DNA from: Escherichia coli
Lineage (GTDB): Bacteria; Pseudomonadota; Gammaproteobacteria; Enterobacterales; Enterobacteriaceae
Length of the DNA stretch: 64,000 nt
Direction: 5' to 3' (one strand)
Assembly (NCBI RefSeq): GCF_030013595.1
Contig: NZ_CP122772.1
Both the position numbers and the translations under genes were made by a program. Positions 27,365 through 43,870 of this stretch are shown piece by piece; position 1 is the first letter of the stretch; each line of letters starts with the position of its first letter. Below the pieces are notes generated by a model. It made no database searches, had not been told where the DNA came from, and saw only the letters and a program-made list of their open reading frames with translations.

Positions 27365-27647
27365 ATTGTGTGTGGGGACAACTTTAACATAGCCTGCAGG
27401 TATTAATTCTGGAGCTTTGTTATCAGGTCAGATATTTTGCATTCCATTAAATAATCTTGATCGATAGGAATTTAAATCCCCAAAAGACTAAAAAAGCACC
27501 ACAAAACGGATATTTCTTCAACACCCCTTGTGCACCATATGAGCGGAAACGACTATTAAACAGGATGACACTGATTGATACAGGGTATGAATGGCGGTTT
27601 TTTGCTCCGTTTCCGGTAAAATGGACGCAACTTCCCCTCTGCGGCTC

Positions 27648-28880
27648 TCAGCCGCACACCTGCTGTCGTGCCAGTCGCTCATGCATCAGGACCAGCTCTG
27701 CCAGTCGGTAACCCCGCTTCAGCCCCGTAAAACGCATCTGACTTCCGCACAGAATGCACTTCAGCGGGTCAACCTTCAGTAACCTCTGATACATCCCTCT
27801 CCACCTGATTTGCATCGCCGTTTTTCTCACCGTCTCCGTTATGACGTACACAACTTCTTCCAGTAAGCGGCGCTTCACCGGACTCAGGAAACCGTAGTAC
27901 CTCACCATACGGAACCCCTTATCTGCTACATGCCAGGAGAACCTTTCCATGAACTCATCTCCACTCATCAACAGGTATTCTTCCCGTTTTGTACGGTGAC
28001 TGTTGTAACGCAGACCGATTTCATCCTGACCGGCATAATGCTCCAGCCGACTCATCGGCACCGGTGGCTTTTTCAGGTAAGAGCCGAAGTACACCGCCAC
28101 ATGTGTGGCGTTATCCATCACCCTGGATATGTTGACATTCCAGCCGCGGCGGTAATGCGTGTCCAGGAAGCGATTCCAGTCCCGTTTGCTGTTTCCTTCC
28201 ACTGCCAGTTCATCCGGTATTACCAGCTCCGGGTATTTCCGGGACAGTAGCCGCGTTATCCGGTAACGCCACATGCTCATCACCTTACGCGCGTAAAAAT
28301 GAAGATTTTTCCAGGTGTGGCCCGACGTCACACCACCGGCAGTTGTCGATAAATGGATATGCGGATGCCACTGCTGGTCACGCCCCCATGTGTGGATCAC
28401 CGTGAATATCCCCGGCTCCACATCTGTCTGATGGCAGATTTCCAGTATCACATCCGCTGCAATGCGGCTCATCTCTGCCAGTAACCACCGGTTGTGGAAC
28501 ACCAGGGACCAGTACTGGCAGGGAAGTGTGAACACAATATGCTGCCACGGGCAGTCGGGGACCAGGCTCAGCAGATACTGTATCCACTGTGCGCCAGCCT
28601 TCACCCCGCAGTGCGGACAGGAGCGGCTTTTACACCGGAAGCAGACCTTTTTGGTGTGGCAACAGTCCGGTGACGAACAGCACCATTGCGTGTAGCCCAT
28701 CAGCGTGGTCCCGCATGCCATGATTTTTGTCACTGACTCAGTCACCACCGGACGCACTGAACCTTCCGGCTGTTTCTCCAGCCAGTTAAGCCAGCGGTTA
28801 CCCTGCTGAAAAATATCGGCAAAACGGGGAAGCATCAGACGGGTGGGGTAACGCCATCCGGCCAGTGAACTGTGCCGCAT
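27648..28880 (-). CDS. tnpA: IS91-family rolling-circle transposase (TnpA)
   Basis: 410-aa ORF with N-terminal Cys-rich zinc-binding region; identical copy at 34244..35476. Confidence 0.85.
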   Translation of the reverse strand: MRHSSLAGWRYPTRLMLPRFADIFQQGNRWLNWLEKQPEGSVRPVVTESVTKIMACGTTLMGYTQWCCSSPDCCHTKKVCFRCKSRSCPHCGVKAGAQWIQYLLSLVPDCPWQHIVFTLPCQYWSLVFHNRWLLAEMSRIAADVILEICHQTDVEPGIFTVIHTWGRDQQWHPHIHLSTTAGGVTSGHTWKNLHFYARKVMSMWRYRITRLLSRKYPELVIPDELAVEGNSKRDWNRFLDTHYRRGWNVNISRVMDNATHVAVYFGSYLKKPPVPMSRLEHYAGQDEIGLRYNSHRTKREEYLLMSGDEFMERFSWHVADKGFRMVRYYGFLSPVKRRLLEEVVYVITETVRKTAMQIRWRGMYQRLLKVDPLKCILCGSQMRFTGLKRGYRLAELVLMHERLARQQVCG

Positions 28881-29200
28881 TCCGGGCAGTACATACCACC
28901 GGCACTGATACCGGCAAGAATGGTTGCAAACTCCCGCTCCGTACAGCGGGCTATTTCCGGATACCCTTCGTCATCGACACGAACAAACCAGAAGACCAGC
29001 TTTTTGTTTCCTGCATCCAGAAAGAACGGAATACCCAGGTCAGCGCAGCACTCAACGGCATCGTCAAAATTATCAAAGCGCAGAACTTCAGCGTCTTCTT
29101 CGTCAAAAAAATCATCCGGATGAAGTTTCACAACATAGCGGGGAAGTTTGCTTCTTTGTGGTGCGGGTTTGCGTTTACGGGGTTTAGCTGAACGGGCCAT
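28835..29200 (-). CDS. IS91 ORF121 accessory protein
   Basis: 121-aa ORF MARSAKPRKRKPAPQRSK... overlapping the tnpA start; present in every complete copy. Confidence 0.7.
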   Translation of the reverse strand: MARSAKPRKRKPAPQRSKLPRYVVKLHPDDFFDEEDAEVLRFDNFDDAVECCADLGIPFFLDAGNKKLVFWFVRVDDEGYPEIARCTEREFATILAGISAGGMYCPECGTVHWPDGVTPPV

Positions 29201-29622
29201 ATAACTACCTGAAAGACAATGACATTATCTTTTTTTATAACGGTAATTCCAGACCATGACAAGCCGCAGCCGCCAGGCTGCCTACTCGATTCTCTCGTAG
29301 AATGTGTCGTCTGGCTGAACGAAAAAACCGCCTTGGTGGGCGGTTTTTCAAAGGTTTATGGAGTTGGCGCTCGTTGAACCGAGGTAACTGGCTTGGAGGA
29401 GCGCAGCCTCCAAAATAACCTGAATGTCCAAATGGGACAGAGATTATGTAACTGAGGGATTTACTAGCGTTGTTAGAAAGGTGGCTTATCAGGAGATCTA
29501 TAAAAATGCAAAAGCCCAGTTTTTCAACTGGGCTTCGCGGTCCCTCAAGGGGAGAAAATCTGAATGGCCTCTATGGGCTACACAGCTAGTTTAACAAATC
29601 AGTAGGTTGTGTCAACAGTAAA

Positions 29623-30096
29623 CTATTTTTCGGATTCCTGCTGTGCTGGTACAAGCGCAGTTGCATTGATAGCTTTGATTACAGCTTTTTGTAGGTTTGT
29701 GACAATTTCACGTGAAAGTGTCTGCGTTATCCATCCCCTATCTACTGCCATAGGTCTGTTAAGTCGCTGATTACTTACTGTTTGAACCATGTCGCATTTA
29801 ACCCAACTAGTTGTTTGTGGGAAATATTTTGCTGGTTTAATTATCCCCTCAGGTAACTCAACGTGAAGGCCATTATTAAGTTTAGCTGGATCTTTTGTGG
29901 TTGAAATCGGAACCACAATACAGGCATTGCCATTCAGACGCCCATTCAATACAACGACGAGTCTACATTTAATCATTTCTGGGGGAATATGAGCATCGAC
30001 AGCAGTCGAAACTACATCTCCTTTTTCATCTTTCAAGTAGTTTCCGTAATTACACGTGAGAATTTGCCCCACTTTAGGGGAAAAATTTATCGGCAT
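29623..30096 (-). CDS. MazF/PemK/Kid-like toxin-fold protein (157 aa) with no obvious antitoxin
   Basis: Motif order matches Kid/PemK as I recall it: G-Q-I-L near the N-terminus, a hydrophobic VVV/VVP core (CRLVVVL, CIVVPISTT) and VKCDMVQTVS (compare VRCDQPRTID); RBS present. Confidence 0.45.
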   Translation of the reverse strand: MPINFSPKVGQILTCNYGNYLKDEKGDVVSTAVDAHIPPEMIKCRLVVVLNGRLNGNACIVVPISTTKDPAKLNNGLHVELPEGIIKPAKYFPQTTSWVKCDMVQTVSNQRLNRPMAVDRGWITQTLSREIVTNLQKAVIKAINATALVPAQQESEK

Positions 30097-30885
30097 ATCA
30101 GAGCCTTCAGATAGTCAAAGAATAGAACATAGATTACTACACAGGAAAGGCTATGCGCTACATGGCGTATATAATTCTATGATCATGAGGAAGCAGCTCC
30201 TCACCAGGACAGAAAATGCTGTATGTCCAGTCAACCGAAGAATTATAATGGCAACCATGATCATCACAGGAAGAACGAGTAACAGATGGTAACTGCGTGG
30301 GTGGATGTGGCTGATAATGCCGTAAAAATAGGTTTGGGGTCGTTGTTGACTATTTTAGGGGGGGCTGACTCTTAAGCTAACACAAAAGCACGAATTAAAA
30401 AAAGAAGCGGCAGTACAGGGATTAAAAGATAAAGAAATAAGTCAGGTTTAGCCATAAGGAAAGCAGCATTTAAACTCCAGTTTGATGTTTCTACTTTCAT
30501 TTTCTACAACAAAATACACGACACAGAACTCATTAATGCACTGAGGGATAAGGCTAGAAATTCTGTTTCCATGTTTCAGGCCATTGTGAATGAGGAAATC
30601 TGCAACGGAAAGTTTGGCACAGCAAGCCAGTAGCGCAGGACAGAATAACCTGTATGTCAGGTGATGCAGGAAATCTTATTCAAATTATCTGGTGCGGTCG
30701 CAGCTGATAAAGGCGTTGGCCAACGCGCTCGATACAAAGCCGGCGTTTAGATGATTGGTTATTTTACAGTGAGTTATGTCATTTCTGCCGAGGAGAATAT
30801 TGGTGAGTTTTTTTGAAAAATATCACAGTACGTTAAAGGGCAGGAAGCGGTTCACTTCCTGCCCTTAGTTACGTTTCCGCTGTCA

Positions 30886-30981
30886 TCAGTCGATGAACTG
30901 GCGAATCAGTTCCAGAATTGCAATCAGCGCGTTCGCAACGGCGACTACAGCCCTGAGAACGATGATTAACAGATTAATCAT
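30886..30981 (-). CDS. DinQ-like small hydrophobic type I toxin candidate (31 aa: MINLLIIVLRAVVAVANALIAILELIRQFID)
   Basis: Short ORF with GGAG RBS 6 nt upstream, single predicted TM helix, hairpin plus T-run immediately downstream on the minus strand; paralog at 43621..43704. Confidence 0.4.
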   Translation of the reverse strand: MINLLIIVLRAVVAVANALIAILELIRQFID

Positions 30982-31291
30982 CCGTTTCTCCAGTAAAACT
31001 GGAGGAAATCACCGTTGCTTACTCATACACTGCCTGTCACAACGGCTCTCTCGCATTGTTAGGTGTAGAGTGACCTCCTCCTGCCAGAGCACCGAATACA
31101 GCACCACCTGTTTATCCAGCCAGGACTTTAAAATCGTTCATACCCGCAGATACGGGAAGAGCAGGATTACAAGCCAACTACATGACTAACTGACTGATTA
31201 TACGCTACACAAAACACCCGTTACACAACTAAATGTGGTTCCTTAACCACATTTAGTTGCTTTACAGCACCATAGTGAATAAAATGTAAAC

Positions 31292-31380
31292 GTTAGGTGT
31301 AGAGTAACCTTCTCCGGTCAGAGCCACCAACTCAAGGCCGGAAAGCACAAAAAAGCCCGATTACCAGTCGGGCTTTTTTG
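31292..31380 (+). ncRNA. Conserved two-hairpin RNA module A (stem-loop plus bidirectional terminator); sRNA or 3' terminator cassette
   Basis: tccgg/ccgga stem with conserved loop (cagagccaccaactcaag) followed by terminator aaaaaagcccgattaccagtcgggctttttt; related copies at 31950..32018 and 43801..43870 with compensatory stem changes. Confidence 0.4.
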
Positions 31381-31433
31381 TACCTGTCATTCAACTGAAC
31401 TAATCTCAATAAAGATGCATCCAAGAGAGATTT

Positions 31434-31865
31434 TTATTTGGATTCGACGTTAATATCTACACAGAGGAATTTGTATTCAGGATTGTTTATTTCAAAATGT
31501 ACTTTATGCTCACCATCAGGAAATAGATTTGGATTACGTTTACCAATTGAACGAATTATTTCGTTAACTTTTTCCTTAATAAGATCGCGTGATAAATCCT
31601 CATTAAAATCTTCTTTTTTTATTCCCGGAATTATTTCCTTATAAAAATCTTTGATTATTTCCCCTCCTATATTTACTTCATAATCAAAAGATATCTGTAG
31701 AGGTCCAGACATGGTTAGTGTTTTCTTCATTGTTGTCTCTCCCGTGTTGAAATCTAATCCTTGCACTGTACAGTGCAATACATCTAAAGCCCGTACATTA
31801 TTAGGCTTTAGATGTATCAAAGTTATTTTACTAGATAATTGATTTTTATCAACCATGCCCAACAA
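31434..31865 (-). CDS. hypothetical protein (start uncertain; possibly the internal MKKTLTMSGPLQ... start)
   Basis: AT-rich ORF ending just upstream of RNA module A, which would serve as its terminator. Confidence 0.4.
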   Translation of the reverse strand: MLGMVDKNQLSSKITLIHLKPNNVRALDVLHCTVQGLDFNTGETTMKKTLTMSGPLQISFDYEVNIGGEIIKDFYKEIIPGIKKEDFNEDLSRDLIKEKVNEIIRSIGKRNPNLFPDGEHKVHFEINNPEYKFLCVDINVESK

Positions 31866-31949
31866 ACATTCAAAGTATAACCAGATAAGCTGGCTTTTGA
31901 CATAGCCAACTATCTGACTTACTATATAAACGCTGGATATTGAGATTCA

Positions 31950-32018
31950 TTCTCCGGTCAGACAATCAACTCAGAACCGGAAAGCAAAAAGCCCGATTAT
32001 CAGTCGGGCTTTTTTTTG
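31950..32018 (+). ncRNA. Conserved two-hairpin RNA module B
   Basis: tccggt...accgga stem with conserved loop core (caatcaactcag) plus terminator aaaaagcccgattatcagtcgggcttttttt. Confidence 0.4.
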
Positions 32019-32027
32019 CTTTTATCG

Positions 32028-32303
32028 TTAAGCTGCACTACTAACGCGAATATTTCCTGCATTCGATGCGGAATGTACTTCAATATCATTAAGAACACCA
32101 ATTGGATATTCTGTTTGATTAAGCATTATTTCAACATCATGTCCACATTCGCATTCATCTTCAAATTTCATCCAGATCTCCCGTTTTAAACCCGAAGAAC
32201 AATTTTCTGTCTCTTCCCAAACATCAAAATCACTTAAATTAATTTTATGTTCTTTTTTACAACTACTGCACATATACAAAACCATGCTCATTTTACTCAC
32301 CAT
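32028..32303 (-). CDS. hypothetical small Cys-rich protein (CxxC ... CxC; possible zinc ribbon)
   Basis: 91-aa ORF with MCSSCKKEHK and ECECGH motifs; terminator module B directly downstream. Confidence 0.4.
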   Translation of the reverse strand: MVSKMSMVLYMCSSCKKEHKINLSDFDVWEETENCSSGLKREIWMKFEDECECGHDVEIMLNQTEYPIGVLNDIEVHSASNAGNIRVSSAA

Positions 32304-32429
32304 ATATTTTTATCAAAAAAATTAATAATTATGGCACTATCTGAAGACTGACAAACCACCCCTGGTTAATCGGATGCTTCAGACATGCCATTGGATATTA
32401 TATGGAGAACAAGGGATAATCAACTATCG

Positions 32430-33835
32430 CTACTTTTTGGAGGTAAATTCAAACCCTAATTTTCCTGTTGCTTTATCAAGCAATTTAACTTTAGCCGAAA
32501 ATTCTTTATTCGTCCTGGAACTAACAAACCCTTTTAACTCTCCTGTAATACCTTTTGTTAGCAAGGTTTCTACTTGCTTGTCAGAAAGCTCCTTGCCAGA
32601 GAAGTTCTTCCAGATTTTAAATTCACATCCTGTACAGAAATAACCTTTTGGCCTGATAGCAATCTGCTTACCACAGGAAGGGCAGGGAGCATTCAGGCGT
32701 TGAGATTGGCCTGCTGGCGCTGCTGCTTCAATCTTCATCTCGCCCAGGTCAACATCTATAATCATGCCGCTCAGTTCACTGTAAAGCTCATTAATAAACT
32801 CTTCAACCGTCAGATCACCATTTTCAATAGCAGCCTGTTTTTCAGCCCATAATGCTGTCATATCTGGATTAACAGCTATATCCGGCAGAGCATCAATAAG
32901 CGCATATCCGGTATCTGTCGGAATGAGTTTTCCTTTTTCCAGCGTGATATAATTTCTCTTCTTCAACGTTTCCAGAATCGCTGCACGGGTAGCTGGTGTA
33001 CCAATGCCGCCATGTTCATCTTTTTTGTCTTTATCTTTATCCTTCAACAATTTTTTAATCGTTGGGTCAGTGACAAAATCCGCGACACGAACAAGCGCAG
33101 CAAGCAAGGAGGCTTCAGTAAATAATGGCGGCGGTGTCGTTTTTTTCTCATTAACTACAACTTCTTTTGTCGTCAGTGTTTCTCCTGTGCGAACTTTACA
33201 GAGTAGTTCAAAAGCGGAATCATCGTTATCTTCTGATTCACCTTCGTCTGTGGTTTCCGCACCAAGAAATGCCTCAAATCCGCTGTCAGTTGTTTTTCTG
33301 GCACGAGCATAGAACGACTCATCACCACACTGAATGGCAACCGATACTTCCTGGTATGCTTTTTCAGGCATGAACTGAACAAGATAGTGTTGTGCGATCG
33401 CAAGGTAAACATTGCGCTCGTCGGTGCTGAGTGCGTTAACATCAGGCACACTGGCAGTCGGGATTATCGCAGTATGCGCAGTCACCTTTGCACTGTTAAA
33501 CGCCTTGCTTTTACGTGCGGAATCAATATCCAGCGACTGAGGAAATACTGATTTCAGGGCATCGATAACCTGCGGCGCTTCGCTGAATTGTTCATCAGAA
33601 AGATATGAGCAATCAGAGCGGTTATAAGTAATCGCTTTATATTTTTCACGTAATTGTTGCGTAATATCCAGCGTTTTTTGTGCCGTCATTTTGAACTTTT
33701 TGTTCATGTATTGCTGGAGTCTGACCAGGTTAAACGGCAACGGCGCAGCCGTTTTTTTATCATCAGTTGCTGCCGCTTCAACGGTAGCCGGTTTTCCTGC
33801 AAGGGATGCAGCCGTTCCGTCTGCCCACGCTTTAT
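32430..33835 (-). pseudogene. topB: DNA topoisomerase III (TopB-like) gene truncated at its 5' end by IS91 copy 2
   Basis: Translation has type IA topoisomerase features (GGIGTPATRAAILETLKKRNYI; C-terminal zinc ribbon CPSCGK...CTGC) but the first ~20 codons of the ORF derive from the IS91 end sequence; the N-terminal part of the enzyme is missing. Confidence 0.7.
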
Positions 33836-33923
33836 CGAGTAGGCAGCCTGGCGGCTGCGGCTTGTCATGGTCTGGAATTACCGTTATAAAAAAAGATAAT
33901 GTCATTGTCTTTCAGGTAGTTAT

Positions 33924-34289
33924 ATGGCCCGTTCAGCTAAACCCCGTAAACGCAAACCCGCACCACAAAGAAGCAAACTTCCCCGCTATGTTGTGAAACT
34001 TCATCCGGATGATTTTTTTGACGAAGAAGACGCTGAAGTTCTGCGCTTTGATAATTTTGACGATGCCGTTGAGTGCTGCGCTGACCTGGGTATTCCGTTC
34101 TTTCTGGATGCAGGAAACAAAAAGCTGGTCTTCTGGTTTGTTCGTGTCGATGACGAAGGGTATCCGGAAATAGCCCGCTGTACGGAGCGGGAGTTTGCAA
34201 CCATTCTTGCCGGTATCAGTGCCGGTGGTATGTACTGCCCGGAATGCGGCACAGTTCACTGGCCGGATGGCGTTACCCCACCCGTCTGA
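33924..34289 (+). CDS. IS91 ORF121 accessory protein
   Basis: Identical to the ORF at 28835..29200. Confidence 0.7.
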   Translation: MARSAKPRKRKPAPQRSKLPRYVVKLHPDDFFDEEDAEVLRFDNFDDAVECCADLGIPFFLDAGNKKLVFWFVRVDDEGYPEIARCTEREFATILAGISAGGMYCPECGTVHWPDGVTPPV

Positions 34290-35476
34290 TGCTTCCCCGT
34301 TTTGCCGATATTTTTCAGCAGGGTAACCGCTGGCTTAACTGGCTGGAGAAACAGCCGGAAGGTTCAGTGCGTCCGGTGGTGACTGAGTCAGTGACAAAAA
34401 TCATGGCATGCGGGACCACGCTGATGGGCTACACGCAATGGTGCTGTTCGTCACCGGACTGTTGCCACACCAAAAAGGTCTGCTTCCGGTGTAAAAGCCG
34501 CTCCTGTCCGCACTGCGGGGTGAAGGCTGGCGCACAGTGGATACAGTATCTGCTGAGCCTGGTCCCCGACTGCCCGTGGCAGCATATTGTGTTCACACTT
34601 CCCTGCCAGTACTGGTCCCTGGTGTTCCACAACCGGTGGTTACTGGCAGAGATGAGCCGCATTGCAGCGGATGTGATACTGGAAATCTGCCATCAGACAG
34701 ATGTGGAGCCGGGGATATTCACGGTGATCCACACATGGGGGCGTGACCAGCAGTGGCATCCGCATATCCATTTATCGACAACTGCCGGTGGTGTGACGTC
34801 GGGCCACACCTGGAAAAATCTTCATTTTTACGCGCGTAAGGTGATGAGCATGTGGCGTTACCGGATAACGCGGCTACTGTCCCGGAAATACCCGGAGCTG
34901 GTAATACCGGATGAACTGGCAGTGGAAGGAAACAGCAAACGGGACTGGAATCGCTTCCTGGACACGCATTACCGCCGCGGCTGGAATGTCAACATATCCA
35001 GGGTGATGGATAACGCCACACATGTGGCGGTGTACTTCGGCTCTTACCTGAAAAAGCCACCGGTGCCGATGAGTCGGCTGGAGCATTATGCCGGTCAGGA
35101 TGAAATCGGTCTGCGTTACAACAGTCACCGTACAAAACGGGAAGAATACCTGTTGATGAGTGGAGATGAGTTCATGGAAAGGTTCTCCTGGCATGTAGCA
35201 GATAAGGGGTTCCGTATGGTGAGGTACTACGGTTTCCTGAGTCCGGTGAAGCGCCGCTTACTGGAAGAAGTTGTGTACGTCATAACGGAGACGGTGAGAA
35301 AAACGGCGATGCAAATCAGGTGGAGAGGGATGTATCAGAGGTTACTGAAGGTTGACCCGCTGAAGTGCATTCTGTGCGGAAGTCAGATGCGTTTTACGGG
35401 GCTGAAGCGGGGTTACCGACTGGCAGAGCTGGTCCTGATGCATGAGCGACTGGCACGACAGCAGGTGTGCGGCTGA
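34244..35476 (+). CDS. tnpA: IS91-family rolling-circle transposase (TnpA)
   Basis: Identical 410-aa translation to copy 1. Confidence 0.85.
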   Translation: MRHSSLAGWRYPTRLMLPRFADIFQQGNRWLNWLEKQPEGSVRPVVTESVTKIMACGTTLMGYTQWCCSSPDCCHTKKVCFRCKSRSCPHCGVKAGAQWIQYLLSLVPDCPWQHIVFTLPCQYWSLVFHNRWLLAEMSRIAADVILEICHQTDVEPGIFTVIHTWGRDQQWHPHIHLSTTAGGVTSGHTWKNLHFYARKVMSMWRYRITRLLSRKYPELVIPDELAVEGNSKRDWNRFLDTHYRRGWNVNISRVMDNATHVAVYFGSYLKKPPVPMSRLEHYAGQDEIGLRYNSHRTKREEYLLMSGDEFMERFSWHVADKGFRMVRYYGFLSPVKRRLLEEVVYVITETVRKTAMQIRWRGMYQRLLKVDPLKCILCGSQMRFTGLKRGYRLAELVLMHERLARQQVCG

Positions 35477-35656
35477 GAGCCGCAGAGGGGAAGTTGCGTC
35501 CATTTTACCGGAAACGGAGCAAAAAACCGCCATTCATACCCTGTATCAATCAGTGTCATCCTGTTTAATAGTCGTTTCCGCTCATATGGTGCACAAGGGG
35601 TGTTGAAGAAACATCCGTTTTGTGGTGCTTTTTTAGTCTTTTGGGGATTTAAATTC

Positions 35657-35773
35657 CTATCGATGAACAGAAAGAACCTGGTAGAAGGTTACATTGGTTT
35701 GCTCATAGCCCCATGATGATACAAAGATATCACCAACAGAGACAGTATCATTTTTAAAAGTTAATACTTTCAT
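35657..35773 (-). pseudogene. 5' fragment of a gene (MKVLTFKNDTVSVGDIF...) truncated by IS91 copy 2
   Basis: ATG at 35773 with GGGAGC RBS behind the duplicated promoter/operator cassette; the frame runs into the IS91 end and stops after 38 codons. Confidence 0.45.
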
Positions 35774-35774
35774 T

Positions 35775-35868
35775 TTTAGCTCCCGCCCAGCTTGGGCTCT
35801 GGATGAAAGAGAATCTGTTTCCCTTTCCTGTGTTTTATTATACCTGCATTTGCAGGTATGGCAAGTTA
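35775..35868 (-). promoter_or_regulatory. Duplicated promoter/operator cassette, copy 1, with inverted repeat atacctgca-tt-tgcaggtat (35841-35858)
   Basis: ~95-bp near-identical repeat of 36686..36782, located ~70 bp upstream of a minus-strand start codon. Confidence 0.5.
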
Positions 35869-36087
35869 TTTTTTTACCAGCCTGTAAGACGGATGCATAT
35901 TTGCTAATAACAATAAATACTGATATTCACCAATAGATAAAGAACGACTGGCCTTACCTGCACTTTCTTTCATCTGCCAGGAATTCAGTTGATAACCAAA
36001 AATATCAGCAGCTTCTTTAAGAGTAAGACCTGCCGCAACCCGCGCATTCTTTACTTCTTCAGGTGTAGGTTTATTCTGCATTTTCAT
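35866..36087 (-). CDS. HTH (XRE-like) DNA-binding protein, 73 aa; possible antitoxin/regulator
   Basis: Contains ...ARVAAGLTLKEAADIFGYQLNSWQMKE..., an HTH-like segment; overlaps the upstream 85-aa ORF by 17 bp. Confidence 0.55.
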   Translation of the reverse strand: MKMQNKPTPEEVKNARVAAGLTLKEAADIFGYQLNSWQMKESAGKASRSLSIGEYQYLLLLANMHPSYRLVKK

Positions 36088-36328
36088 CCCCTTTTGTCAG
36101 ACAATCACACAAAACCCCATTATCCAGAAGCATCAATGATGCCAGGTTGAGTTTTTCGTCCATTATCAATTTTCTTACTGTTTTCCTGCTTTTAGTTTTA
36201 TCAATCGTCTTAACATATTTTAAGGCGTGAAAAACCGTATCCCCATCTTCATCCATCGTTCTGATTACATAGGAGTAATTACCTCTGTTTTTCTTAATTA
36301 TCTTATCTTTATCCATATTATTCCTCAT
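36071..36328 (-). CDS. hypothetical 85-aa protein, co-transcribed upstream partner of the HTH protein (possible toxin)
   Basis: Overlapping gene pair with toxin-first, HTH-second arrangement as in HigB/HigA-type modules; no sequence-level assignment. Confidence 0.4.
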   Translation of the reverse strand: MRNNMDKDKIIKKNRGNYSYVIRTMDEDGDTVFHALKYVKTIDKTKSRKTVRKLIMDEKLNLASLMLLDNGVLCDCLTKGDENAE

Positions 36329-36360
36329 AACTAAAAAAGGGGCTTAATGCCCCTTTTTAT

Positions 36361-36684
36361 CTATAACACGGTATGTAACCCTGTTTCCTGTGTAAATAAA
36401 CGCGCTAACTGATCACAATAGATATTATCGAATCTTGAAATATCTTTAACTTCAACACCACGTACACGAGAAAATTTCACCTGGTACGTATCAGTAAAAT
36501 CCAGTTTAATTTTTACTAAGTTGATGCCTTTCATTGCAAAATTTGACGGCAAACGGAAAGTTAACCCACACTCACCGTTTTCATCAAAGTAAGAAAAACT
36601 TTTAGCACCAGTCATAACAATAAAACGATTACCACCAAGTTGACGTAAAATCTCTGTGGCTACAGATTTAGCATAGTTTTGCAT
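36361..36684 (-). CDS. hypothetical protein (~107 aa from ATG 36684)
   Basis: ATG preceded by GGGAGG; first gene behind promoter/operator cassette copy 2. Confidence 0.5.
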   Translation of the reverse strand: MQNYAKSVATEILRQLGGNRFIVMTGAKSFSYFDENGECGLTFRLPSNFAMKGINLVKIKLDFTDTYQVKFSRVRGVEVKDISRFDNIYCDQLARLFTQETGLHTVL

Positions 36685-36685
36685 T

Positions 36686-36782
36686 TTTAACCTCCCGCCC
36701 ACTTTGGGCTCTGGATGAAAGAGAACCTGTTTCCCTTTCTTGTGTTTTATTATACCTGCATTTGCAGGTATTGCAAATTTTT
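36686..36782 (-). promoter_or_regulatory. Duplicated promoter/operator cassette, copy 2, with inverted repeat atacctgca-tt-tgcaggtat (36753-36770)
   Basis: Near-identical to 35775..35868; inverted repeat ~70 bp upstream of the ATG at 36684. Confidence 0.5.
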
Positions 36783-36829
36783 AATGCTCTCGCTCTGACT
36801 GTAAACAGTCAATCATTTGATGATTAATC

Positions 36830-37111
36830 TTAGCGCAAATCTGCGATCTGATAGACTTCGCTGCTTTCCCTTCTTCCAACGGCAATAACGAGTAAAACGA
36901 CTTTCTCATCAATGACTTGGTATACAAGTCTGTAGCCAGATGCACGAAGTTTGATCTTATAGCGATCAGCATGACCATGTAACCGGGCTGCGGGTACGCG
37001 TGGATTTTCCAGCCGTTCTGCCAGTTTCTTTTTGAATTGTTCACGGATGGTGTGGCCGAGTTTCTGCCATTCCTTCAGTGCTCTACGGTCAAAAGCCAGT
37101 TCATAGGTCAT
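36830..37111 (-). CDS. stbE: RelE/StbE-family toxin
   Basis: 93-aa ORF (MTYELAFDRRALKEWQKL...YRLVYQVIDEKVVLLVIAVGRRE...) typical of the RelE/ParE superfamily; overlaps the upstream antitoxin. Confidence 0.8.
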   Translation of the reverse strand: MTYELAFDRRALKEWQKLGHTIREQFKKKLAERLENPRVPAARLHGHADRYKIKLRASGYRLVYQVIDEKVVLLVIAVGRRESSEVYQIADLR

Positions 37112-37352
37112 CCAGGTTAACCTTCACAATTTCCGGGTTTTTCATGCGCTCATCAGCAACAGCGTTTAACTCAGCATCTTCAGCGAGTTCCCGATAGTAG
37201 GCGTAAAGTTTTGGTGGAACGCAATAGAACGCCGGTTCGTTTCGGTTCAGGATCGCAACAGCGTCCCCTTCACCTTCAGCTACGGTTCCCATAGGATTTT
37301 TTTTCAGGTCAGTAATACTGGCCGCTGTGGTTGTCAGAATTTGATAGCTCAT
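37101..37352 (-). CDS. stbD: Phd/YefM-StbD-family antitoxin
   Basis: 83-aa ORF MSYQILTTTAASITDLKKNPMGTV... preceding and overlapping the toxin gene. Confidence 0.8.
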   Translation of the reverse strand: MSYQILTTTAASITDLKKNPMGTVAEGEGDAVAILNRNEPAFYCVPPKLYAYYRELAEDAELNAVADERMKNPEIVKVNLDDL

Positions 37353-37994
37353 AAGCCCTCCGCTTGTCTCATTGGCATAATAGCATCTTTAAAAGCACTC
37401 TTAAAAGTGCTTATGTTGAGAAAAACATCAGAACAGGTGAGATATGGCTCTTTCCGACATCGCCTTAAAACGCTCTGTAACGCGTTCTGAGCGTTTTTTC
37501 CCGTTTCGTTGTGGTCAGCTACGGTTTAACGGTTTTTAACGCCGCTCAACGCTTTTTAGCGGCCTTGTTGCTGTGATCTGTTGCCATGATCCGGATAGGA
37601 GTTCAATCTTGATCAAAATTTCCTCAAGGCAACGACTGTTTTGTAAATACCCTCTAAAACGCGCTGTATCGCATTCTGAGCGATTTTTTCGATTTCGCAT
37701 GGTTTCACCATGGTTGTATCGAACGAAGCGGCAGAAAGCGATTCAGGGCTTCTCAGTGAAAGATCCAAAAAGGATCAATCAACGGATCGTATGAGCTGAA
37801 CTCTTCTGGTTTTGAGAAAGGAGACACCGCTCGCCGCAGCCGAACGACCGAGTGTAGCGAGTTAGTGAGCGAGGAAGCGGAATAGCACAGGGATTACATT
37901 AGGCACTTACGCACAGTGGTCAAAATATGAGCATATTGTTTTTATGTGTGGTTGTCTTGGTTCAGAGTGATCTGTCCTCCGGGTTTACGCAAAG

Positions 37995-38042
37995 TTATCC
38001 ACAGGCGCTGTGAATTTTTTGTTTTGAGCAGAGTTATCCACA
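37995..38042 (+). promoter_or_regulatory. Two DnaA boxes (TTATCCACA at 37995-38003 and 38034-38042) of the iteron origin
   Basis: Exact consensus 9-mers 40 bp apart, upstream of an AT-rich GATC cluster and the iterons. Confidence 0.6.
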
Positions 38043-38084
38043 GATTTTTTGTGTTTTTTTGCTTATTAAACTTCTTGTTTTTAA

Positions 38085-38121
38085 GATCTTAAATGTAGAT
38101 CGGTAGATCTACTTTAAGATC
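38085..38121 (+). promoter_or_regulatory. AT-rich segment with four GATC (Dam) sites
   Basis: GATC at 38085, 38098, 38107 and 38118 within 40 bp; typical origin unwinding/regulatory region. Confidence 0.5.
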
Positions 38122-38213
38122 TTTAACTTACTTTAACTTATTCTGCAAACATTGTGCCAGCTTTTTTATCAATAATTTCATTAAGATAGGTGTTGTTTTT
38201 TGTCGCCTCAAAA

Positions 38214-38334
38214 TGAAAGGTGGATGGGTACGCACTGAAAGGTGGATAGGTACGCACTGTAATTTTCATGAAAGGTGGATGGCTGCGCACTGAAAGGTGG
38301 ATGGGTACGCACTGAAAGGTGGATGGGTACGCAT
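38214..38334 (+). repeat. Iteron array: five 22-bp direct repeats (tgaaaggtggatgggtacgcac) plus degenerate copies at ~38418-38441 and ~38491-38510
   Basis: Repeats at 38214, 38236, 38269, 38291 and 38313 (one 11-bp spacer); degenerate copies sit in the rep promoter region. Confidence 0.8.
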
Positions 38335-38585
38335 TTTTCTGTTTTTATTCAGATATTCGTATCTTTGTATCTTCATTTCTTTAGTTCTTTATAGTGCTCT
38401 AATTTAACGTATGACGTTAAAAGGTGGATACCTGCGCATTTCTATCATATTGAATATAAATGATAAAAATTCTTTCATGTGATCAGTGTTTTGGTGGAAA
38501 TACATAAGGTGGATAAACCACTTTACATATTTCCGCCTTTGTGGTTATGATTTCACCATCAGAACTTAAAAACCACAGGTAATGT

Positions 38586-39422
38586 ATGAACTTACTGAGC
38601 GTTACAAAGAAAACAAAAATTCGCCACAGAAATGAAATTAACAGCACATTCTCATCGTTGCCTTTGTCTGCCAGAAGAATTTTGTTTATGGCTATGGCGC
38701 AGATTGATTCACGTGAAGAGTTATCTGAGGGGGCAACCTTTCGTATTACGGCTCGGGAATATGCATTTATCGCTGATATTGATGTAACAGGTGCTTACCG
38801 GCAGTTGAAAGAGGGGGCAGAAGAACTTCAGGCCAGTGTTATTCGCATTCCTCGAAATCAACTTCTCACACCTCAGGGCAATCAAAGCTCTGGACATACG
38901 AAGAAGAGAGGTAAATTACCTTCTGATGCAGTCAGGCTTATGAACCTGACTGCGTTTTGTGATTATGTTGAAAGTGAAGGATATATTGATATTGCTTTTT
39001 CACATGTCATTGAGCCATATATCACGATGTTAAAGGATTCTTACACTACTCAGGTTTTGATATCGTCTGTAAGACTCGCTGATCAAAATTCAAATATGCT
39101 TTATCAGTTTATCAGGAAACAATACAGCAGTGGTAAAAAGACATTTTTCGACATTGAAGTAGATGTATTAAAGGATGAACTTGAATTATTCAGAATAGAT
39201 AATGGCGAAAAAGTTTACCTTTATCAGAATTTTAAGGATTTTAATAAGGTTTTTCTGCAAAAAAATATTGAAAAAATAAATCAATATACAGAGATTAATC
39301 ATCTCGAAGTTAAAATCGTTGAGAGAGTCGCAAGAAGAGCATCAAAGCTAAGGTTTTCTTATAAAATAGATAAAGAAAGTGAGGGCTTAGATATCAGAAT
39401 ACCATACGGTTTCAGAGGATAA
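38586..39422 (+). CDS. rep: Rep_3-family iteron-binding replication initiator (RepE/pi-like)
   Basis: 278-aa ORF immediately downstream of the iterons; N-terminal region resembles RepE-type initiators (LSARRILFMAMAQIDS vs RepE LSRDQKRMLYLFVDQI). Confidence 0.75.
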   Translation: MNLLSVTKKTKIRHRNEINSTFSSLPLSARRILFMAMAQIDSREELSEGATFRITAREYAFIADIDVTGAYRQLKEGAEELQASVIRIPRNQLLTPQGNQSSGHTKKRGKLPSDAVRLMNLTAFCDYVESEGYIDIAFSHVIEPYITMLKDSYTTQVLISSVRLADQNSNMLYQFIRKQYSSGKKTFFDIEVDVLKDELELFRIDNGEKVYLYQNFKDFNKVFLQKNIEKINQYTEINHLEVKIVERVARRASKLRFSYKIDKESEGLDIRIPYGFRG

Positions 39423-39461
39423 TTGCATAAACTTCGTTTTGAGATCGAAATGAGGTAGCTC

Positions 39462-39908
39462 ATGGCTCAAATCTATCAATTCCCTCAGGGGGAAGAACGT
39501 GCTAAATTCAGGAAAGAAATTGCCAGGGAGCGTAAGAAACGTTTTGCAGTGAAAACAGGGAGCACTTTTGTTAAGTGGCTTGGCTGGGGATGGTTTTATC
39601 TTCGTCTTCTTGTCGCGAGTGTTTTACATTTTATCTTTGTTTTTGTGTTAGCCATTCTTGGTGCGTTTAAATGGGCTGTATTCTGGCTGGGTGGTATTTT
39701 GTGTGTCATCACTTGGTATCATCTCGATCACCAGTTATGGACGCCACAAAATCTGACTATACCGGTGATTACGGCAACCTGGATTTTGGGACTGCTGGCT
39801 GAGCCTCTGATGGAGCTGCTCAACAAAACTATGCCTTGGCACAAGTTACTTGTTCCCGAACCTGCGGACGAAAGCACCGAGAACAGTAGCGAGATAAGCC
39901 AGCAATGA
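39462..39908 (+). CDS. hypothetical membrane protein (148 aa)
   Basis: ORF with 3-4 predicted TM helices directly downstream of rep. Confidence 0.45.
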   Translation: MAQIYQFPQGEERAKFRKEIARERKKRFAVKTGSTFVKWLGWGWFYLRLLVASVLHFIFVFVLAILGAFKWAVFWLGGILCVITWYHLDHQLWTPQNLTIPVITATWILGLLAEPLMELLNKTMPWHKLLVPEPADESTENSSEISQQ

Positions 39909-39975
39909 TGCTACTCAGCAGTTATGCCAGACCCTGCCTTTTCACTGCGATGCAGGATAGGGCAAACGCCGCAAA

Positions 39976-40401
39976 ATGACGTCTCTGACGCCATTCTGCA
40001 ACGTTTGCCCGGTGACCTACAGTCGGTTCTTGTCGGAGAATTTTATGGAATATCAGGTGAGAGAGTTTATTAACGAAAAATATACTAAGGCTGTTAATAT
40101 TTTAAAGGATAACCTTAAAGAAAACTACCATGTTTTTTATGGTGTGAGATTAATTGAGATTCTTTTTCCAGCCAGTGAGTATGGCACTGATGCTTTCTTT
40201 AAAGAGTTTGAATTAATTAACAGTGTAATACTTCCATTGGTAATCTTTGATTTAACACAACGCAAGCCAATGATGATTATCAGCTTCGATAAGATACTTG
40301 ATGCCAGTTTGTTGGAAGGAACAAATATTGTGGTTCTTGAATGTATTACCCTCGCTGATCTTCTGACAAATGATAACATTGATTTTTTATATAAAAGCTA
40401 A
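39976..40401 (+). CDS. hypothetical protein (start uncertain; possibly MEYQVREF... at ~40045), AT-rich
   Basis: ORF converging on and overlapping by 4 bp the 3' end of the 325-aa minus-strand gene. Confidence 0.4.
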   Translation: MTSLTPFCNVCPVTYSRFLSENFMEYQVREFINEKYTKAVNILKDNLKENYHVFYGVRLIEILFPASEYGTDAFFKEFELINSVILPLVIFDLTQRKPMMIISFDKILDASLLEGTNIVVLECITLADLLTNDNIDFLYKS

Positions 40402-41375
40402 GAATCTCCTTTCAGTTTAAATTTTCTGCTTGGGTCGCCAAGTGTTATTGAGTCTACTTCATGTGAGTAATGAAGTGTATGATAATGTGCTGGATTTTTC
40501 AGATAATCAGGGAGTGATATTATTTTTCCGCAGCTAATTGCAGAATGAAACCAGTTGCGGAATGTCTCGCTATTTGTTTTTAATGCATCTTTTGGAATAA
40601 ATACTAATTTTATGTTGGAAACGTAATTAACAGGTTTAAGTATGGTATGTCTGTTTTGTCCAAAGTCTTTTAAAGCATCTGTAAACTCGTATTCAGATGT
40701 ATAAATTCTAGTTTCTTTATTAAGGGTTTTGATCTGGAATATGAATGAATAGTAATTCTTATCAAGTATTTCAACAGTGCCTGGGTCTATACTCAGTTGT
40801 TTAATAACAGCTTCTCTTTTATACTCTAACCCGTCTCTGACTGATTGATATACAACCATTGCTGCATGATGTGAACCACCACTGTTTGAAGCTACATATC
40901 GGTCAAACCAAGAATAATATTTAACATTAATAGGGTTGCGTGGGGGGAAACCTTCATGCTCAATGTGCCATATATTATCTTTCCAGTCTAAAATATTTTC
41001 AGCTTTCAGATTTTCGGCAGGATACATCCCCTCTCCCCAAGAATAAAGATCTTTGAACCAACTACCATTTATTACCTTGCTCCATCCACAACCGAAACTT
41101 TTCGAGTCAGTCAGAGATTGTATTTTGTTAAAATCGAAGTCCAGAGAGTGTTTCTTATCTGTAGTTATTAAGTTGCTCAGAATTTCAGCCAGATCCTTGT
41201 CAATATATCTCAGTGAGTATTCGCTAAATATATTTTCAAGCTGCAATATGGTGTCTGCATCTGCTGTAGGTTTAAATAACTTAATATCAGCAAGATTTTT
41301 AAACGTTGCTGTGGTCAGTTTATGGTGATCTGTCAACCTGTAGAGGTCACAGATCAATTCGGTTAAATATCTCAT
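40398..41375 (-). CDS. hypothetical protein (325 aa), AT-rich, no recognisable domain
   Basis: Long uninterrupted ORF in an AT-rich block; no motif I can assign. Confidence 0.5.
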   Translation of the reverse strand: MRYLTELICDLYRLTDHHKLTTATFKNLADIKLFKPTADADTILQLENIFSEYSLRYIDKDLAEILSNLITTDKKHSLDFDFNKIQSLTDSKSFGCGWSKVINGSWFKDLYSWGEGMYPAENLKAENILDWKDNIWHIEHEGFPPRNPINVKYYSWFDRYVASNSGGSHHAAMVVYQSVRDGLEYKREAVIKQLSIDPGTVEILDKNYYSFIFQIKTLNKETRIYTSEYEFTDALKDFGQNRHTILKPVNYVSNIKLVFIPKDALKTNSETFRNWFHSAISCGKIISLPDYLKNPAHYHTLHYSHEVDSITLGDPSRKFKLKGDS

Positions 41376-41399
41376 AGATTTTCATCCATGCTTCTATGG

Positions 41400-41681
41400 T
41401 TAGAATTTTGCAGACTCAAGCAACCAGTGATTCTTTATGTTTTCATCCTGGCTGTTGTACATCGCCAGCGCCGCTTTGAGAACGGTTGTTTTGCTCTGCC
41501 CTGTTCTGATAGCTTCAGCTTCCAGTATGTCCTCAAAATGGGCTGAAAGTCTGAAGTTCATCAACTTTGGTTTACCCACTACAGGCGCTCTGGTAGCGCC
41601 GGAGATAAAACGCGCGGTTTCTGCGTTTGTTGCTGGTTGCTGAGATTCATCGATGTTCGGACGGTTTAGTTTTAAAGCCAT
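41400..41681 (-). CDS. parG: ParG-like ribbon-helix-helix centromere-binding protein
   Basis: ~93 aa from MALKLNRP...; C-terminal RHH-like segment (KLMNFRLSAHFEDILEAEAIRTGQSKTTVLKAALAMY); immediately downstream of the ParA-like ATPase. Confidence 0.6.
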   Translation of the reverse strand: MALKLNRPNIDESQQPATNAETARFISGATRAPVVGKPKLMNFRLSAHFEDILEAEAIRTGQSKTTVLKAALAMYNSQDENIKNHWLLESAKF

Positions 41682-41778
41682 GACAATTTCCCCTTGTACG
41701 GTATGCATTAATAGTAAATATCATACTATCTTTATATTATCTTTACAATGTAAATATTTATAGATGGTATTGATATTA

Positions 41779-42441
41779 CTATAAAATTCCAATTTCCTGC
41801 GCCACTAGTTCAATCTGTGCTTTCGCTGTTGAAAGGCTTGATGCCCGGCTAACGTCATGTACCCCTGCCCCTTCATTACAGGCGCTTTCATACACATCCA
41901 GCTCGGATATCCGGGTTTTAAGAGGTTGAATCCAGATGTTGTCCGAACGCAGTAATTTATCCAGATCAATGGCCGCTTTTCTGTGGCGGGGTTTCGCTGA
42001 GTTGATTCTGGTGAACAGCACCCACGGTACCAGGGCTGCGTTAGCTTTCTGAGCGATGCGGATTTTCTCTGTAACACTGGTCAGAGTTTCGCTTTCGAAA
42101 TCAGAGGACGGCTTAACCAGTGTTACCACGATATCTGATACTGTCAGGGCGCTACGGAACTCCTGGCTGTCGTGGCCGGGGCAATCGACAATGAGGACTT
42201 CACACAGCTTACTAAGTCGCTTAATTTCATTGCTGACGTTTCCGTAAGCTGCATGAACCGGGATAGTGAGTAAGCCGTTATCTGTCCGCTTTTCGTTCCA
42301 GCTCAACAGATCGTGGTTTTTATCTGTCTTGAGGATAATTACCGACTTACCTTTATTGACCAGCATTGAGCCTGTGTTAGCCACGTAGGTGCTTTTGCCT
42401 ACACCACCCTTATCTGATACGACAAGCAAGATTTTACCCAT
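41779..42441 (-). CDS. parF: ParA/ParF-family partition ATPase
   Basis: 220 aa with deviant Walker A (SDKGGVGKST) near the N-terminus. Confidence 0.85.
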   Translation of the reverse strand: MGKILLVVSDKGGVGKSTYVANTGSMLVNKGKSVIILKTDKNHDLLSWNEKRTDNGLLTIPVHAAYGNVSNEIKRLSKLCEVLIVDCPGHDSQEFRSALTVSDIVVTLVKPSSDFESETLTSVTEKIRIAQKANAALVPWVLFTRINSAKPRHRKAAIDLDKLLRSDNIWIQPLKTRISELDVYESACNEGAGVHDVSRASSLSTAKAQIELVAQEIGIL

Positions 42442-42449
42442 TTCAGAAT

Positions 42450-42700
42450 TCCTCTCTTTATGACGTAAAGATTATGTAAAGACTGTCTTATCTTTACAGT
42501 GTGTGTTGTTCGTAAAGATTATTTTGTCTTTACAGTGTCTTTATATTACACATGATTTACCATGTAAAGCACAAATAAAGATAAGCTTGTATTTATGTTA
42601 TCTTTATTATGTAAAGATTTGTGTGTATTTATAGTGGCTTTACGTGGTAAAGCTGAGACCGTCTTTACATCATCTTTATGTTGTAAATTTCTGTGTGACA
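42450..42700. repeat. Centromere-like array of TCTTTAC(A)/(T)GTAAAGA repeats upstream of parF
   Basis: More than ten copies of the heptamer in both orientations within ~250 bp between parF and the resolvase gene. Confidence 0.55.
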
Positions 42701-42803
42701 TTGTCACTTTATGGCCGGAGGTCTGTTTTCTGGTTCTTTTTGAGTGTGCCTTTCCTGTCGATCTACTTTCTGGTGCATTTTGGGTATAGTGGTGTAACCT
42801 TAT

Positions 42804-43466
42804 GTGAACCGGTTCTGTAATATGACTTCAAATGTACCAACAAGCTTTGTCCGCGCTTATCTGAGAGCTTCAACAGCAGAACAGGATGCTTCGCGTGCCC
42901 TGGAAACTATCGAGGCTTTTGCCAGGGAAAGAGGCCTGATCATTTGCAGCTACTATATTGAGAATGAATCCGGCACCCGTCTTGAGCGCCCGGAACTTTT
43001 TCGTCTTCTGAGAGATTGCCAACAAAATGACATTTTGCTTATCGAGGATGTGGACAGACTTTCCCGCCTGTCAGGGGAAGACTGGAATACGTTGAAGAAA
43101 ATGATCCGGCAGAAAGACATCCGGGTTATGGCGGTGAATGTGCCGACGACATGGATTAATTCTGGTATGAGTGAGTTTGACAGCCGGTTGTTTGCAGCCA
43201 TTAACGATATGCTGCTGGATATGCTGGCCGCAGTTGCCAGAAGGGACTATGAACAACGTCGGGAACGCCAGAAACAAGGGATAGAGAAAGCAAAGAAAGA
43301 CGGCAAATATAAAGGGCGTAAACCTAATCAAGCCAGACATGATGCAATTATCAGGTTGATAGAAAGCGGTAGCTCCTGGACACAGGTACAGAAAGTGCTA
43401 GGGTGCAGCCGTGGCACAATCAGTAATGCGCTAAAACGTAAAACCGGGCAGAAATCCAGTAAGTAG
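42804..43466 (+). CDS. Serine recombinase / resolvase (probable multimer-resolution enzyme)
   Basis: N-terminal catalytic motif (AYLRASTAEQD) and C-terminal HTH (GSSWTQVQKVLGCSRGTISNALKR); start may be the internal MTSNV... codon. Confidence 0.8.
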   Translation: MNRFCNMTSNVPTSFVRAYLRASTAEQDASRALETIEAFARERGLIICSYYIENESGTRLERPELFRLLRDCQQNDILLIEDVDRLSRLSGEDWNTLKKMIRQKDIRVMAVNVPTTWINSGMSEFDSRLFAAINDMLLDMLAAVARRDYEQRRERQKQGIEKAKKDGKYKGRKPNQARHDAIIRLIESGSSWTQVQKVLGCSRGTISNALKRKTGQKSSK

Positions 43467-43620
43467 AGGAGTAGGGGGCTAATATACCTGCAAGGCAGGA
43501 TATTAACTCAGGAGATTGGGTGTGTGGTGTTTAGTCAATGCATTTGAATATTGTAACTAAAATATGTTTTTATTAAAGGCCGGAGGTGGTTAGCCCCCGG
43601 CCTTAGTTACGTTTCCGCCA

Positions 43621-43704
43621 TCAGCCCATCAACTGGAGAAGGTAGCGAATCAGTTCAAGAAGTGAGATTAGTGCCCCCAGAACGATGATTGCTTTATCAA
43701 TCAT
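43621..43704 (-). CDS. DinQ-like small type I toxin candidate (27 aa: MIDKAIIVLGALISLLELIRYLLQLMG)
   Basis: Closely resembles my recollection of E. coli DinQ; hairpin plus T-run downstream on the minus strand; 5' leader region shared with the paralog at 30886..30981. Confidence 0.5.
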   Translation of the reverse strand: MIDKAIIVLGALISLLELIRYLLQLMG

Positions 43705-43800
43705 CCGTTTACTCCATTATATGGAGCAGACTCCCGATACTTACTCTTACACTGCCTGTCATATCGGTTGTTCTTCGGTGTTGGTTGAAGACAGTTCCAC

Positions 43801-43870
43801 TCCAGCCAGAGCCACCAACTCAGGGCTGGAAAACACAAAAAAGCCCGATTACCCGTCGGTTTTTTTTTGT
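43801..43870 (+). ncRNA. Conserved two-hairpin RNA module C
   Basis: ccagcc...ggctgg stem with the same loop core as module A (cagagccaccaactcag) and a degenerate terminator. Confidence 0.35.

Follow-up and report, generated by a model that had tools for sequence, protein, structure and literature searches.

The window, the whole 64,000-nucleotide stretch of Escherichia coli DNA analysed here, carries the insertion sequence (IS) IS91 in three full copies and one 754-nucleotide fragment, numbered copies 1 to 4, and a BLAST search of IS91 against the whole window gives no further match. The region around copies 1 and 2 is very probably an IS91-mediated plasmid patchwork, in which the IS91 copies are the seams of a mosaic built from several replicons. 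From left to right, the window holds transfer and replication genes of the incompatibility (Inc) group IncF, copy 1, an IncX4 remnant, copy 2, an IncX1 replication module (35665-44302), copy 3, an F18 fimbrial region, the copy 4 fragment and haemolysin genes; it is a pig E. coli virulence plasmid with IS91 copies at its module boundaries. The evidence observed directly comprises the anatomy of the copies, the half-sites at their junctions, the source backbones, the orientation variants and IS91 arrays in related plasmids, and the exchange of sequence between IS91 copies.

Copies 1 and 2 are inverted relative to each other and bracket a segment of about 4.5 kb, as an earlier note on this DNA had reported with coordinates that a repeat search and a base-by-base comparison proved accurate. 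The inverted repeat arms occupy positions 27457-29290 and 33834-35667, at 1,834 nucleotides each, and are separated by a spacer of 4,543 nucleotides. Compared base by base, the repeat copies at 27460-29290 and 33834-35664 (1,831 nucleotides) differ at a single position, T27512 versus C35612, which is repeat position 1779 and lies 3' of the transposase gene tnpA. Because this mismatch is outside the open reading frames (ORFs), the translations of orf121 (121 amino acids) and tnpA (395 amino acids) are identical in the two copies. The note's description of the copies as identical thus stands for the translations and fails for this one base.

The ends of the element are defined by an insertion in the IncX4 plasmid pCV839-06-p2 (L002; related plasmids are designated here by L numbers), whose own IS91 lies at the position equivalent to 32477/32478 of the window. 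Filled and empty sites differ there by exactly 1,829 bp with zero target duplication, so the element proper is CGAGTAGG...CCTATCGAT (CGAG...CGAT), and the two bases AT that precede it are flanking sequence. Both copies are of the canonical isoform, termed type B, and both ORFs are intact in each. Copy 1 (27460-29288, minus strand, 1,829 bp) has its oriIS end at 27460 and its terIS end at 29288, with tnpA at 27648-28835 and orf121 at 28835-29200, both on the minus strand. Copy 2 (33836-35664, plus strand, 1,829 bp) has its terIS end at 33836 and its oriIS end at 35664, with orf121 at 33924-34289 and tnpA at 34289-35476, both on the plus strand and overlapping by one base between stop and start. 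Thus the terIS (left) ends of both copies point inward to the 4.5-kb segment, and the oriIS (right) ends point outward.

The single mismatch falls within the 82-bp oriIS region of copy 1, where T27512 would change a G-C pair of the inner predicted hairpin to G-T. With T, the predicted fold is weaker, at -3.7 instead of -7.1 kcal/mol for the top strand and at -1.5 instead of -4.6 kcal/mol for the bottom strand. The position is C in all relatives examined, and the T is either private to copy 1 or a sequencing error.

Judged by their sequence, the copies are canonical IS91. The transposase of copy 2 matches NF033538, the NCBIfam equivalog for the IS91 family, with 289.8 bits against a cutoff of 125, over profile positions 2-355 of 356. 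Upstream of tnpA, the 121-amino-acid frame of orf121 ends at repeat position 456, where tnpA starts, and this one-base overlap of stop and start is a described feature of IS91 (PMC13181058). The isoform criterion for IS91 is at least 95% nucleotide identity to the reference X17114 (PMC13181058), and copies in RefSeq with identical sequence are named 'IS91-like element IS91 family transposase' (WP_000937614). There is no essential difference between the window copies and IS91 itself (X17114, cited in PMC13181058), the canonical element of the HUH, rolling-circle type, which was first described on E. coli alpha-haemolysin plasmids; the likeness includes a haemolysin operon, which in the window also lies beside one copy.

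The sequences next to the oriIS ends conform to the target rules of IS91. Alignment of all four window copies gives ATCGAGTAGG as the left end and CCTATCGAT as the right end, and the right end is followed by CAAG (copies 1, 3 and 4) or GAAC (copy 2), which read 5'-CTTG and 5'-GTTC on the other strand. The earlier note had reported one of these tetranucleotides abutting the same end of all four copies and had recognised in it the known target preference at the ori end; alignment of the copies bears out the first statement and the literature the second. With a frequency of 0.0064 per position in the window, a match at four ends of four would arise by chance with a probability of about 2e-9. At the opposite end, CGAGTAGG is present in all full copies and reads CTCG on the other strand. 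An experimental paper of 2026 documents 5'-CTTG or 5'-GTTC as the target adjoining oriIS, the end downstream of tnpA, and 5'-CTCG as the terIS cleavage site; it also describes transposition without target duplication, one-ended transposition that mobilises DNA adjoining terIS, and the minor targets 5'-GTCC (about 5%) and 5'-CTCG (1-4%) (PMC13181058). Among the 24 full-length copies listed, the oriIS ends outside head-to-tail joints all adjoin CAAG, GAAC or the minor target GGAC. The oriIS flank in L017 is GTAC, a recorded minor target.

All four junctions of copies 1 and 2 are half-sites, and unoccupied versions have been found for three of them. The first is the terIS junction of copy 2, which abuts a topB remnant (32430-33833, minus strand) comprising codons 249-705 of a 705-amino-acid plasmid topoisomerase III. 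In L002, topB runs uninterrupted across this site, and the comparison reveals a canonical insertion at the CTTG site GCTTTAT^CAAGTAATTT (the caret marks the joint); the IS91 copy of L002 itself clips the last ~13 codons at the 3' end of the gene. The expected continuation of topB adjoins no oriIS end in the window. Sequence searches of the window found neither the 5' part of topB nor IncX4 transfer genes, and there is no IncX4 backbone in the window besides the 4.5-kb piece.

The second half-site is at the oriIS end of copy 2, where the GAAC target (35665-35668, plus strand; 5'-GTTC on the other strand) lies inside an IncX1 backbone gene (WP_000866648). The copy cuts this gene, of which the first 36 of 109 codons are left at 35665-35773 on the minus strand, and the other half is absent from the window. 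In the plain IncX1 plasmid L006, the site is unoccupied and reads ...TTTTTTTACCGT^GAACAGAAAG (also written ...TTTACCGT^GAACAGAAAG). The third half-site is at the oriIS end of copy 1, where the CTTG target (27456-27459, plus strand) is 92 nucleotides downstream of an IncF-type RelE/ParE gene. Three unrelated plasmids (L007, L009 and L010) carry this site unoccupied as ...AATAATCTTG^TAGGAGATAAAATG, and the IncF/IncI-type backbone continuation TAGGAGATAAAATG... is absent from the window. No unoccupied site was found for the fourth junction, the terIS flank of copy 1 on the side of a PemK-like gene, and the partial matches are confined to a ColE1-like RNAI stretch and a Klebsiella PemK-like region. 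Because the junctions are half-sites and their flanks come from different replicons, the IS91 copies are best read as recombination seams rather than as simple insertions.

The earlier note had described copy 2 as cutting off the 5' end of topB and, at its other end, truncating a gene behind a duplicated promoter cassette. Both truncated genes do abut copy 2, but neither was truncated in place. The topB remnant matches residues 249-705 of the 705-amino-acid type IA topoisomerase of pCV839-06-p2 at 456 of 457 positions, and comparison with a plasmid carrying intact topB, which the note had proposed as a check, is provided by L002 and its uninterrupted gene. The note had also named the same junctions without IS91 in related plasmids as a refuting observation, and no related plasmid of this kind was found. 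The duplicated cassette is a direct repeat of ~100 bp, with one copy at 35768-35871 (minus strand; a strong -35/-10 match of TTGCCA-16-TATAAT, and a palindrome) and another at 36678-36782 (a strong -35/-10 match). L006 has the same duplication, so the repeat is native to the IncX1 backbone and was not made by IS91.

Related plasmids carry the same segment in varied surroundings. At least 80% of it is present in about 50 plasmids of PLSDB; of the records listed and inspected, most come from E. coli of pigs and cattle. Twelve copies of the module (the segment with its IS91 flanks) were examined, namely that of the window and 11 copies from 10 other plasmids, and the inner junctions are identical in all 12. 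Each side has one to three copies of IS91, which belong to two subtypes: type B and a type A that is ~90% identical to it. At least five different outer flanks occur, and three of these are found on either side of the module. The IncF RelE/ParE CTTG flank adjoins the PemK end of the module in the window, L001 and L005 but its topB end in L015 and L016; the haemolysin-side GGAC flank adjoins the PemK end in six copies but the topB end in L014; and the IncX1 39715 flank adjoins the PemK end in L004 but the topB end in L005. Both module orientations relative to the same neighbours therefore exist. Moreover, between L004 and L005 the adjacent IncX1 module is exactly inverted, and its two oriIS junctions have changed places. 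The comparison supports the structural instability that the earlier note had predicted. Its expectation that inverted copies could invert or delete the DNA between them is sound for inversion; deletion would need direct repeats, such as copy 1 with copies 3 and 4.

Chimeric-junction searches were made for the inversion isomer of the window itself. The left isomer junction matched one record, which has an extra 534-nucleotide IS91 remnant, and the right isomer junction matched none; such searches under-count because tandem arrays break the joint, and the orientation variants came from direct inspection. The published porcine E. coli plasmids pUMNF18_87 and pCV839-06-p2 have the same inner junctions as the window, but differ from it in IS91 subtype, in copy number per side and in outer flanks.

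In many relatives, IS91 copies are joined head to tail with the exact joint CCTATCGAT^CGAGTAGG and no bases between them. Such perfect arrays, two or three copies long and often mixed in subtype, are seen at both module ends (L001, L003, L004, L005, L012, L014, L015 and L016). An order in which type B is always inside and type A outside was considered for the arrays and was not upheld in a larger sample. At each array joint, the oriIS end is followed by CGAG (5'-CTCG), and 5'-CTCG is the third most common natural 'target' in a survey of IS91 (PMC13181058).

Sequence has also been exchanged between copies. In L005, a type B copy (13580-15408) contains a type A tract of ~530 bp with 40 consecutive type A diagnostic sites, a mosaic that on this pattern is the product of gene conversion between 90%-identical IS91 copies. 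Two other joins look like transposase-mediated events at oriIS ends rather than homologous recombination. In L011 (15471-16011), a type B copy abuts with its oriIS end a GGAC (5'-GTCC) that lies within a type A copy, of which a 534-nucleotide remnant is left. In L003 (16206-16207), the oriIS end is not at GAAC 35665 but at CAAG 36636 (window positions), 971 bp further into the IncX1 flank.

These observations suggest a course of events for the patchwork. A canonical IS91 would have inserted at 5'-CTTG inside topB of an IncX4-type plasmid, and this primary insertion at the 33835 site would read as IS91 followed by CAAGTAATTTACGG. Further insertions would have occurred at CTTG downstream of the IncF RelE/ParE operon and at GTTC inside the IncX1 backbone gene. 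The 1.8-kb copies would then have recombined homologously, and transposase would have joined some oriIS ends to new targets; in this way the replicons would have been fused and reshuffled, until a 4.5-kb IncX4 remnant was left within an inverted IS91 pair, bordered by IncF backbone and by the IncX1 replication module. Since the two flanking elements are inverted and differ by one base, recombination of the RecA type can flip the module. An IS91 insertion leaves its target single and intact, so additional copies can accumulate at these junctions in head-to-tail arrays. We infer the order of these events, and likewise the respective shares of recombination and transposase.

Some points weigh against this account. 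IS91 at the 33835 site together with an intact topB continuation was found in no IncX4 plasmid, and the copy 1 terIS site was not found unoccupied, so we infer the primary insertions at the topB site and on the PemK side. The exact arrangement of the window, with a single type B copy on each side between these two flanks, is absent from PLSDB and from complete RefSeq E. coli genomes. Also, the comparison across plasmids speaks for evolutionary variation, and not for inversion that is ongoing in this strain.

The missing exact arrangement could also mean that the assembly is wrong in the orientation of the segment or in the number of IS91 copies, given that short reads are unable to resolve 1.8-kb repeats. 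The repeats are 1,829 bp long and one base apart, and relatives usually have two or three tandem copies per side where the window has one, which matters because collapse of tandem repeats is a typical assembly error. However, each of the four junctions is found singly in independent complete assemblies, single-copy sides also occur in L001, L003, L005, L011, L012, L013 and L017, and the single-nucleotide difference that distinguishes copies 1 and 2 has been kept. An artefact is therefore unlikely.

Another explanation is that the unit of two IS91 copies and the segment is itself mobile, moving like a composite transposon or through one-ended rolling-circle transposition, which would proceed past terIS into the 4.5 kb. 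Both terIS ends face the segment, and one-ended transposition moves DNA adjoining terIS. The unit is also found in at least five contexts in which every outer flank starts with a valid target tetranucleotide, and relatives have transposase-type joins to minor targets. However, the two outer flanks of a module copy are in no case contiguous at an unoccupied site, and those of the window belong to two different replicons (an IncF/IncI backbone and an IncX1 gene) whose partner halves are absent. The same few flanks recur on either side, as fits flipping or exchange by recombination and not fresh insertion, and the transposing strand would have to be read through an inverted second copy without a recognised terminus. 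Such mobility is thus very unlikely.

Truncation in place, by insertion of copy 2 into the plasmid's own topB and subsequent deletion of the adjacent 5' part, agrees with the canonical terIS junction at the topB CTTG site and with the apparent IS91-adjacent deletion in L003 (oriIS at CAAG 36636 versus GAAC 35665), but is largely refuted and has the slightest chance of being right, as the DNA past the oriIS end of copy 2 is IncX1 and that past copy 1 is IncF, a third replicon type, the 4.5-kb piece is a 99.8% IncX4 match with no other such backbone in the window, and the same module occurs in many different contexts.

Inversion of window DNA in place was also considered as an origin and rejected: it restores no intact site, and the partner halves are absent. 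When the inversion between copies 1 and 2 is undone, no contiguous gene results: what lies in the left flank is not topB, and the IncX1 gene does not go on in the terIS flank of copy 1.

Toxin-antitoxin-type genes adjoin each IS91 seam. They include genes for a ribbon-helix-helix (RHH) protein and a RelE/ParE protein at 26805-27364, and genes for a RelE/ParE protein and a stabilisation protein at 36830-37352. In the 4.5-kb segment, the PemK/MazF-like gene (29623-30096) and dqlB (30886-30981) with its AgrB RNAs are of this type too. Tentatively, the seams and the arrays might be read jointly: the arrays would be repeated insertions at one junction, and the toxin-antitoxin genes would have been kept by selection against IS91-mediated loss of modules, a combination that is possible and on balance doubtful. 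Repeated insertion could re-use the surviving target next to oriIS, or could take place at the 5'-CTCG of a resident terIS. If true, this would account for the third rank of 5'-CTCG among the natural IS91 'targets' of the 2026 survey.

Cointegration mediated by ISs, and inversion by homologous recombination between IS copies, are known for IS26, IS1 and similar multi-replicon plasmids. The plasmids of this type resemble the IS91 patchwork in having ISs at the boundaries of replicon fragments, half-site junctions, orientation isomers and gene conversion between copies. In contrast, IS91 makes no target duplication, so bookkeeping by 8-bp duplications is impossible and the invariant tetranucleotide at oriIS takes its place. 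The nearest functional parallel is IS801, another member of the IS91 family, which rearranges virulence plasmids of Pseudomonas syringae through recombination and one-ended transposition, where toxin-antitoxin systems act as a restraint and reduce the recovery of IS801-mediated deletions (PMC6354349). Deletions were measured experimentally in that study, whereas the evidence here is comparative alone, and the protective role of toxin-antitoxin systems that was demonstrated for IS801 is only putative in the window. The 2026 survey of IS91 found mainly a single copy per plasmid (PMC13181058), in contrast to the three full copies, one fragment and two subtypes (~90% identical) of the window and to the tandem arrays of its relatives.

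The finding is real, ordinary and already known, in that a canonical IS91 patchwork is present and annotated in dozens of related plasmids. In the open-access literature, no paper on this module or on tandem IS91 arrays in plasmids of enterotoxigenic E. coli was found, which is not proof of absence. What may be new is the tandem arrays, their possible link to the natural 5'-CTCG 'target', and a near-identical sequence of 18 nucleotides at two sites in topB. Beyond correct annotation, the importance is small. The window illustrates that virulence plasmids of pig enterotoxigenic and oedema-disease E. coli, with F18 fimbriae and haemolysin, consist of IncF, IncX4 and IncX1 pieces joined at IS91, which accounts for structures that differ from isolate to isolate in the orientation of the module, the number of IS91 copies and adjacent deletions. 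Short-read assemblies of such plasmids are not to be trusted across IS91 junctions. Similarly, replicon typing would report 'IncX1', and might detect partial IncX4 genes, on what is one IncF-based molecule.

The two independent IS91 sites in topB share the sequence GCTTTAT^CAAG[C/T]AATTTA at 17 of 18 bases, and both encode a KLLDKA motif. They are located at 32469-32486 and at 33826-33835 of the window, together with 15814-15831 of L002. This likeness hints that the target choice of IS91 may extend past the tetranucleotide.

The segment between the two terIS ends (29289-33835) is an IncX4-type backbone remnant, 99.8% identical to pCV839-06-p2, with a ColE1-like RNAI remnant at its left edge. 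This remnant of a ColE1-type antisense RNA (29319-29418, minus strand) scores 72.9 bits with Rfam model RF00106 against a gathering score of 47, and lies 28 nucleotides away from copy 1 and its terIS end. The ~100-nucleotide RNAI stretch is all that small ColE1-like plasmids match in the segment, so at its left margin the 'IncX4' segment derives from a third kind of replicon. The match to RNAI is complete, and copy 1 occupies the place expected for the RNAII promoter.

The remaining genes of the segment lie between this RNA and topB. A PemK/MazF-family toxin-like gene (29623-30096, minus strand, 157 amino acids) takes its name from the annotation of the records, and its product has no match in NCBIfam. 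The gene dqlB (30886-30981, minus strand) encodes a DinQ-like type I toxin of 31 amino acids, and two AgrB antisense RNAs are found near it at 31293-31380 and 31933-32017 on the plus strand. Hypothetical proteins of 140 amino acids (WP_001398192) and 87 amino acids (WP_000063165) are encoded at 31434-31856 on the minus strand and at 32028-32291, respectively.

The topB fragment is, by its domain content, a non-functional leftover rather than a functional member of the TopB family. Toprim is missing from it entirely, the catalytic core has lost its first ~96 residues, and the fragment reaches 304.6 bits with TIGR01056 (cutoff 515.75) over profile positions 255-698 only. The intact homologue scores 539 bits and has Toprim at 3-131, the catalytic core at 153-598 and a C-terminal repeat. 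In the RefSeq record of pUMNF18_87, the same remnant is annotated as an N-terminally truncated pseudogene, 'DNA topoisomerase, missing N-terminus'. The frame of the remnant stays open for 72 nucleotides (24 codons) into the terIS end of copy 2, to position 33905, and has an ATG start inside IS91. Given transcription outward from the element, a fusion protein without Toprim, with 33834-33905 as its added part, could in principle be made.

The other IS91 copies are to the right of the IncX1 fragment 35665-44302, which copies 2 and 3 bracket. Copy 3 (44303-46130, minus strand) is of type A and 90.4% identical to type B, and its oriIS end adjoins CTTG at 44299-44302. Copy 4 (56472-57225, minus strand) is a 754-nucleotide oriIS-proximal fragment identical to type B, located between the F18 fimbrial region and the haemolysin operon. 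It is cut at 57225, where unrelated sequence follows, and hlyD lies ~1 kb upstream of it; the last part of the window (58230-64000) comprises hlyD, hlyB and part of hlyA. The position of copy 4 beside haemolysin genes is in keeping with the historical link between IS91 and alpha-haemolysin plasmids.

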